Below are positions 23,994 to 24,679 of a stretch of DNA of 64,000 nt, in pieces. The position numbers and the translations under genes are program-made. Source of the stretch: Escherichia phage vB_VIPECOMC06; sequence record PQ416618.1, one strand, 5' to 3'. Within the stretch, counting starts at the first letter, position 1. Every line of letters starts with the position of its first letter. The notes beneath the pieces were generated by a model. The model was given only the letters and a program-made list of their open reading frames with translations, searched no databases and was not told the origin of the DNA.

Positions 23994-24224
23994 ATGTCTA
24001 CTGAAACTATCGAAAAACTGCAGTCTGAAATCGTTACTCTGAAATCTCGCATTCTTGATACTCAAGACCAAGCAGCTGCTATCCAGCAAGAATCTCAGCA
24101 ACTTGGTAGTGCTCTTGCTAAAATCGCTAATCTGGTTGGTATCACTGGCGAATCAGTTAAGATTGATGACCTGGTAGAAGCAGTACGTGAACTTGTTAAA
24201 GCTGAAACCACAGAAGAAGAATAA
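23994..24224 (+). CDS. 57A: Tail fibre assembly chaperone gp57A
   Basis: 76 aa coiled-coil protein ([20 protein letters not shown]) matching T4 gp57A; synteny. Confidence 0.85.
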
Positions 24225-24679
24225 TGAAATTTGAGGACTTTTCACAAGGCCTCTACGTCGCAGCTAAATTTTCAGAATTAACACTTGATGCGCTGGAAGA
24301 CCTCCAGCGCAAATTAAGAATTCCTAATCCAGTACCACGTGAAAAGCTTCATTCAACAATTTGTTATTCACGTGTAAACATACCATATACTACATCTAGT
24401 GGTAGTTATTCTGTTGCCGAATCAGGACACTTTGAGGTATGGAAAACTGACGACGGCGCTGTACTGGTTTTAGTTCTTGATTCTGAATATCTTAGATGTC
24501 GTCATCAGTATGCACGAGCTTTAGGTGCTACTCATGATTTCGACGACTACACTCCACATATAACGTTATCATATAACGTTGGCCAACTATCATTCAGTGG
24601 TGATGTAGCTATTCCGGTTATTCTCGACCGTGAATACAAAGAACCCTTAAAACTAGATTGGGCCGAAGATCTAAAATAA
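24224..24679 (+). CDS. 57B: gp57B = Acb1-type 2H phosphodiesterase (anti-CBASS cyclic-oligonucleotide nuclease)
   Basis: 151 aa; two H-x-T/S motifs (KLHSTICY and TPHITLSY) typical of 2H phosphoesterases; position 3' of 57A as in T4. Confidence 0.8.

Follow-up and report, generated by a model that had tools for sequence, protein, structure and literature searches.

What does the open reading frame immediately 3' of gene 57A encode in Escherichia phage vB_VIPECOMC06 (PQ416618.1), and is its neighbourhood rightly described as enriched in counter-defence genes? A first-pass annotation of the 64,000-nucleotide stretch analysed here (the window) had answered both questions from the letters: it read the frame at the 57B position as an Acb1-type 2H phosphodiesterase that degrades cyclic-oligonucleotide immune signals, on the strength of two H-x-T/S motifs (HSTI and HITL) in a protein of 151 residues, and it took the presence of such a gene beside the internal-protein cluster as support for calling the surroundings counter-defence-enriched.

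The coding sequence and its catalytic motifs

The coordinates, the length and both motifs given in the first-pass annotation were correct, as the open reading frame and its translation agree with them (Table 1). The gene also occupies the 57B position as claimed, immediately 3' of 57A, with gene 1 (dNMP kinase) further upstream. In our reading of the open reading frames of the 64-kb window, the frame was uninterrupted, with no frameshift or internal stop. The protein contains five histidines, only two of which (H43 and H112) stand in H-x-T/S motifs. The two motifs alone had been said to identify the protein as Acb1, for which they are insufficient: at least two HxT/S matches were present in 14% of 20,000 shuffles of the protein (3% when the next residue also had to be hydrophobic), and in 5 of the 59 six-frame open reading frames of 100-200 aa in the window. 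Because the motif pair is so common in shuffles, the identification has to rest on homology.

Table 1. Coordinates of the features discussed in the text, counted from the first nucleotide of the window
Feature	Position	Strand	Remarks
TATAAATA, match to the T4 late-promoter consensus	23632..23639	+	Inside gene 1, ~360 nt upstream of 57A
Gene 57A (tail-fibre chaperone)	23994..24224	+	Pfam GP57, E = 5.9e-23
acb1 (gene 57B) coding sequence	24224..24679	+	ATG to TAA, 151 aa plus stop
First catalytic motif, H43-S44-T45-I46	24350..24361	+	Corresponds to T4 H44/T46; sequence reading
Second catalytic motif, H112-I113-T114-L115	24557..24568	+	Corresponds to T4 H113/T115; sequence reading
E140 codon (T4 E141, adenine N6 reader)	24641-24643	+	Just 5' of the lid
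C-terminal lid, residues 144-151 (LDWAEDLK)	24653..24676	+	Includes W146 (T4 W147); T4 alignment
Early-promoter-like element TTTACA-N17-TACTAT	24693..24721	+	Right after the acb1 stop; first of three repeats
Capsid-targeted internal head protein ORF	24758-25030		90 aa from ATG; PHROG 7673
Capsid-targeted internal head protein ORF	25091-25399		102 aa; PHROG 2667
Acb2 (T4 vs.4) homologue, cyclic-nucleotide sponge	39350-39616	+	64% identity to T4; Pfam Acb2_Tad1_hairpin, E = 8.2e-18

Homology to Acb1 of T4 and FBB1

The assignment to Acb1-type 2H phosphodiesterases was borne out by a family profile, by a solved structure and by the characterised enzyme of T4. The protein matched Pfam PF23474 (Acb1) with 197.3 bits (E = 1.3e-58), against a gathering score of 27 bits, and the match ran over residues 8-149 of the protein and positions 1-144 of the 144 in the profile. 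The best match among solved structures was the Acb1 of Erwinia phage FBB1 (PDB 7T26/7T27; E = 1.1e-58, residues 9-148). T4 Acb1 (NP_049750.1), the founding member of the family, which is encoded at the same locus after 57A, was identical at 129 of 151 positions (85%) in an ungapped alignment (E = 2e-102). Judging from these sequence comparisons, 24224-24679 is the acb1 (gene 57B) orthologue of an RB69-like T-even phage (Mosigvirus), and it very probably encodes Acb1 proper, that is, a metal-independent 2H phosphodiesterase that removes the second messengers of CBASS.

The functional residues named for Acb1 are the tetrad H44/T46/H113/T115, the stacking residues Y12/W74/F107/W147, E141 and the lid at 145-152 (PMC9117128), and by counting along the T4 sequence we confirmed that these numbers fit the T4 protein. 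T4 Acb1 begins with MM, the window protein is one residue shorter at the N-terminus, and for each of the nine single residues named (9/9) the window protein has the identical residue one position earlier (n-1). The catalytic histidines, whose alignment with Acb1 had been proposed as a check on the identification, thus correspond without a gap, H43 and H112 to H44 and H113 of T4, and the stacking aromatics (Y11, W73, F106, and W146) and E140 are identical as well. None of the 22 substitutions that separate the two proteins falls on a named functional residue, and the lids are identical at seven of eight positions (LDWADDLK at 145-152 in T4, LDWAEDLK at 144-151 in the window). When the window protein was aligned with nine other Straboviridae proteins, including those of Acinetobacter, Aeromonas, Vibrio, Klebsiella, and Citrobacter phages, with identity down to 28%, Y11, H43, T45, H112, T114, and E140 were invariant among the ten and W146 was nearly so.

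FBB1 Acb1 (7T26, apo; 7T27, with 3'3'-cGAMP) shares ~63% identity with the window protein over the crystallised region (residues 9-148). The HxT/HxT pair, the tyrosine, the glutamate and the lid tryptophan all correspond. FBB1 differs by a phenylalanine and a tyrosine in place of W73 and F106, respectively, which the window protein shares with T4, and by one extra residue following the G78 equivalent. Since a single-sequence AlphaFold2 model of the window protein reached a pLDDT of only 37 (pTM 0.27), it is from this identity to 7T26 that we infer the compact 2H phosphoesterase fold.

Two side observations concern more distant homologues. In Slopekvirus and Pseudotevenvirus phages the 57B homologue reaches 207 aa (Klebsiella phage KP15 and Citrobacter phage Xman; 1459-2082 of each stretch): there is an insertion ahead of the lid tryptophan, and the C-terminus is extended by ~30 residues, neither of which is seen in T4-type Acb1. 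A profile of ten Acb1 homologues matched the C-terminal ~130 residues of the portal protein of cyanophage Pam3 (PDB 8hds chain A, residues 489-617; E = 1.8e-12), more strongly than the same profile matched PDE-9 (9Q2G); with the window sequence as single query the portal protein gave E = 0.058. This suggests that the Pam3 portal protein may carry a fused Acb1-like 2H domain.

Relatives and selection

The gene was already known: identical copies stand in public genomes, and the enzyme of which it is an ordinary orthologue has been characterised. The 57B product of ATK48 (ANZ51176.1) is 100% identical to the window protein, and RB69 gp57B (AAP76056.1), whose gene has the same upstream genes, is one residue apart (L70 in RB69, F70 in the window). 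A tblastn search with the window protein found a homologue in 1469 phage records, in 137 of them at least 99% identical, and in most records the label was "hypothetical protein" or "RNA ligase." The window protein and hundreds of these 57B orthologues merit the name Acb1, cyclic-oligonucleotide phosphodiesterase.

The surrounding gene order is conserved: the order 2 (DNA end protector)-3-1-57A-57B is common to the window, T4 and distant relatives, and 3-1-57A-57B was found in the window, T4, AR1, RB69, ATK48, phi25-307, IME340, and in Aeromonas, Vibrio, and Klebsiella phages. Similarity to Mosigvirus genomes stands at 96-97% through acb1. By the Nei-Gojobori method, dN/dS of acb1 was 0.06 against RB69 and ~0.07 against T4, the latter value being approximate with dS near saturation. 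Judging from these low ratios, purifying selection on acb1 is strong and the allele is not decaying.

Predicted mechanism

By analogy with the orthologues, Acb1 would be made during infection and would bind 3'-5'-linked cyclic di- and trinucleotides with at least one adenosine in a U-shaped pocket, the predicted ligands being 3'3'-cGAMP, cUA, cAAA, and cAAG. The bases would stack on Y11, W73, F106, and W146, E140 would read adenine N6, and the C-terminal lid would then shut over the ligand, a closure that has been seen in 7T27 (PMC9117128). H43/T45 and H112/T114 would catalyse the attack of the adenosine 2'-OH on the 3'-5' bond, and a 2',3'-cyclic phosphate intermediate would be resolved to linear products; Acb1 is reported to bend 3'3'-cGAMP and to yield linear GpAp by way of a cyclic-phosphate intermediate (PMC9117128). 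With the messenger gone, the CBASS effectors would stay inactive and the phage would avoid abortive infection.

Much of this is known from T4 and FBB1. The T4 orthologue was found by activity-guided fractionation as the degrader of cGAMP, and T4 without acb1 loses the activity (PMC9117128). The H44A mutation abolished the activity of T4 Acb1, and the H44A/H113A double mutant was catalytically dead (PMC9117128). Lysates of T4-infected cells degraded cAAG. The compounds cGG, cA4, and 3'2'-cGAMP were not cleaved by the T4 and FBB1 enzymes (PMC9117128). T4 without acb1 grows normally in the absence of CBASS and is impaired >300-fold on hosts whose CBASS is active (PMC9117128); independently, in a transposon screen, 57B was dispensable on K-12 and depleted, that is, conditionally essential, on a CBASS host. 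T4 Acb1 also degrades 2'3'-c-di-AMP and cA3 and so triggers Panoptes guard systems, which phages escape through acb1 mutations.

For the window enzyme, the chemistry, the range of substrates and the effect in vivo are here carried over from these orthologues; a literature search returned no experiment on window Acb1 or on RB69 gp57B and nothing on RB69-type Acb1. The T4-type pocket and lid are fully retained in window Acb1, which is therefore predicted to confer the advantages seen in T4 along with its Panoptes liability. An intact acb1, together with the Acb2 homologue (Table 1), predicts resistance to many CBASS systems, and, like T4, this phage should set off the Panoptes guard systems that sense cyclic-nucleotide depletion, to which an intact acb1 predicts sensitivity. 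The practical consequences of finding acb1 here are limited, and current understanding is unchallenged by it.

Substrate spectrum and alternative readings

Because 22 substitutions separate window Acb1 from T4 Acb1, and because the core of 2H phosphodiesterases can tune their substrate range even inside one structural group, the exact substrate spectrum given above is extrapolated. We consider it very unlikely that the window enzyme is an Acb1 orthologue with a shifted spectrum, which would cleave CBASS signals and differ from T4 in the other messengers or in the products, for instance by sparing 2'3'-c-di-AMP and so not setting off Panoptes. The substitutions do include a leucine-to-phenylalanine change at residue 70, three residues before the stacking W73; selectivity is set by the 2H core and not by the lid, products vary within the structural group of T4 Acb1 (bioRxiv 10.1101/2025.08.21.671373), and selection by Panoptes on acb1 is documented. 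However, the named ligand-contact and catalytic residues are all identical to those of T4, seven of the eight lid residues agree, and RB69 has L70, as T4 does. Window Acb1 is also far nearer to T4 Acb1, at 85% identity, than to the divergent PDE-9, at E = 0.007. We would accordingly give little credence to a Mosigvirus-type core (the 22 substitutions with the ATK48-like F70) whose substrate or product profile would differ measurably from that of T4. If it did, for example through less activity on 2'3'-c-di-AMP, the guard signal of Panoptes, or on cA3 with cleavage of CBASS signals preserved, such an enzyme would be a natural intermediate in the Acb1-Panoptes arms race.

PDE-9 itself (PDB 9Q2G/9Q2Y, deposited as "Anti-CBASS protein Acb1") has two catalytic histidines, degrades 3'3'-cGAMP and belongs to the structural group of T4 Acb1 (bioRxiv 10.1101/2025.08.21.671373); it spares 2'3'-c-di-AMP and Panoptes is not triggered (bioRxiv 10.1101/2025.08.21.671373). 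A viral 2H phosphodiesterase of the PDE-9 type was rejected for the window, as the match is partial (residues 7-119 only, with the E-value given above) and the lid, N-terminal in PDE-9, is C-terminal and of the T4 type in window Acb1.

It is extremely unlikely that the protein is an RNA ligase or an RNA-repair 2H enzyme, such as a LigT-like 2'-5' ligase or a cyclic phosphodiesterase acting on RNA ends, even though the databases say so: PHROG 755 is described as "RNA ligase," and RefSeq uses the same description for T4 57B and many orthologues. Cellular LigT (2'-5' RNA ligase; Pfam PF13563) belongs to the same 2H superfamily and has the same pair of HxT/S motifs, the chemistry is common to 2H enzymes, and there is a weak match to Pfam 2_5_RNA_ligase2 (E = 0.013). 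That match, confined to residues 70-131, reaches 15.9 bits where the cutoff is 27, whereas the Acb1 profile scores 197 bits. Moreover, it was a cGAMP-degrading activity through which the T4 orthologue was identified, and experiments on that orthologue show that the substrates of the LigT family differ from those of Acb1. We regard the "RNA ligase" label as a superfamily-level annotation, below its own Pfam threshold, that has been passed on without an assay. There is next to no probability that acb1 is in decay or inactivated here and kept only as sequence, in the manner of the nonsense allele of BASEL phage Bas43: natural loss of acb1 function does arise in T4-like phages under Panoptes pressure, but a pseudogene reading is ruled out here by the full-length open reading frame, by the intact functional residues, by the dN/dS of ~0.06-0.07, and by the occurrence of the identical protein in many independent isolates.

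Expression context

The acb1 orthologue shares one base with its upstream neighbour, the TAA stop of 57A overlapping the ATG of acb1 (TAATG); the corresponding overlap in T4 is 4 nt. In a promoter and terminator scan of 21000-27500, no promoter-like element was found between 57A and acb1, and promoter-like matches in this region as a whole were at shuffle level (29 vs 24.4 +/- 5.5 in shuffles). Because of the one-base overlap and the lack of a promoter in between, 57A and acb1 presumably share a transcript, and their translation may be coupled.

A match to the T4 late-promoter consensus, TATAAATA, inside gene 1 is a candidate late promoter of 57A-acb1. Gene 1 of T4 has a copy of its own at the corresponding place (6006-6013 of the T4 stretch, minus strand). 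Seven copies of TATAAATA were found in the whole window against 9.2 expected, which is no excess over chance, so it is solely the conserved position in T4 that singles this copy out. The activity of Acb1 emerges ~15 minutes into T4 infection (PMC9117128), an onset that a late promoter in gene 1 would fit.

The downstream internal-protein cassette

Two open reading frames of the PHROG families 7673 and 2667, both described as "internal head protein," follow acb1. Both of their products start with MKTFKEFI.EAA, the T4 capsid-targeting signal that is common to T4 IPI, and beyond the first ~10 residues neither showed any likeness to T4 IPI. RB69 and ATK48 have a true IPI homologue at the locus 3' of acb1, which is absent in the window, and the capsid-targeted neighbour of acb1 in the window is best matched in Tequatrovirus genomes. 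Similarity of the Mosigvirus type breaks off at ~24793; RB69, ATK48, and phi25-307 lack the body of the first internal-protein gene (24758-25030). Tequatrovirus genomes, e.g., IME340, match the segment that contains it, 24680-25470, at ~96% identity. Judging from these comparisons, the internal-protein segment after acb1 is mosaic.

The genes of the cassette are bounded by three direct repeats of ~75 nt (24692-24763, 25031-25096, and 25411-25474), each carrying TTTAC(A/T)-N17-TACTAT, a ribosome-binding site and ATGAAA. The repeats fit the published consensus of the T4-type PeSL promoter, TTTACW-N17-TAYWAT, which has been implicated in modular shuffling (PMC4122927). The conserved block is bordered on its 3' side by the first element (24693-24721), which is meaningful because it is repeated, unlike the other matches of the promoter scan.

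Counter-defence genes in the window

The claim of a counter-defence-enriched neighbourhood stands in part. Two capsid-targeted internal head proteins are indeed encoded directly 3' of acb1, and internal proteins are injected with the DNA, at least some of them countering host defences, e.g., the anti-restriction IPI* (PMC4122927). However, neither protein resembles IPI past its targeting signal, and the genes immediately on the 5' side serve morphogenesis or metabolism: 57A encodes a chaperone, gene 1 a kinase, and gene 3 a tail protein, none of them a counter-defence function. The only upstream gene with a counter-defence flavour is that of gp2, the DNA end protector, which shields the ends of injected DNA from exonuclease V (T4 record note). 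An anti-defence role for the products of 24758-25030 and 25091-25399 is plausible. The acb1 gene borders a known hyperplastic region of injected proteins, and we find the description "counter-defence-enriched" fair but soft. T4, like this phage, has both Acb1 and Acb2, the two genes being ~15 kb apart in the window.

Several other features of the window are recorded here as observations in their own right. A homologue of IPIII, 92% identical to that of T4, is encoded at 36803-37378, and no IPII homologue was found in the window by tblastn. At 41239-41703 a Tk.4 homologue is encoded that includes a Macro domain (Pfam, E = 2.9e-6). A single tRNA was detected by ARAGORN and Rfam, a tRNA-Met (CAU) at 26905-26976, which has diverged from the copy in RB69 and phi25-307. 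It is followed at 27018-27686 by an open reading frame of 222 aa for a GIY-YIG (Seg-like) homing endonuclease (Pfam GIY-YIG, E = 1.3e-6), where RB69 and phi25-307 have a tRNA-Arg (UCU).
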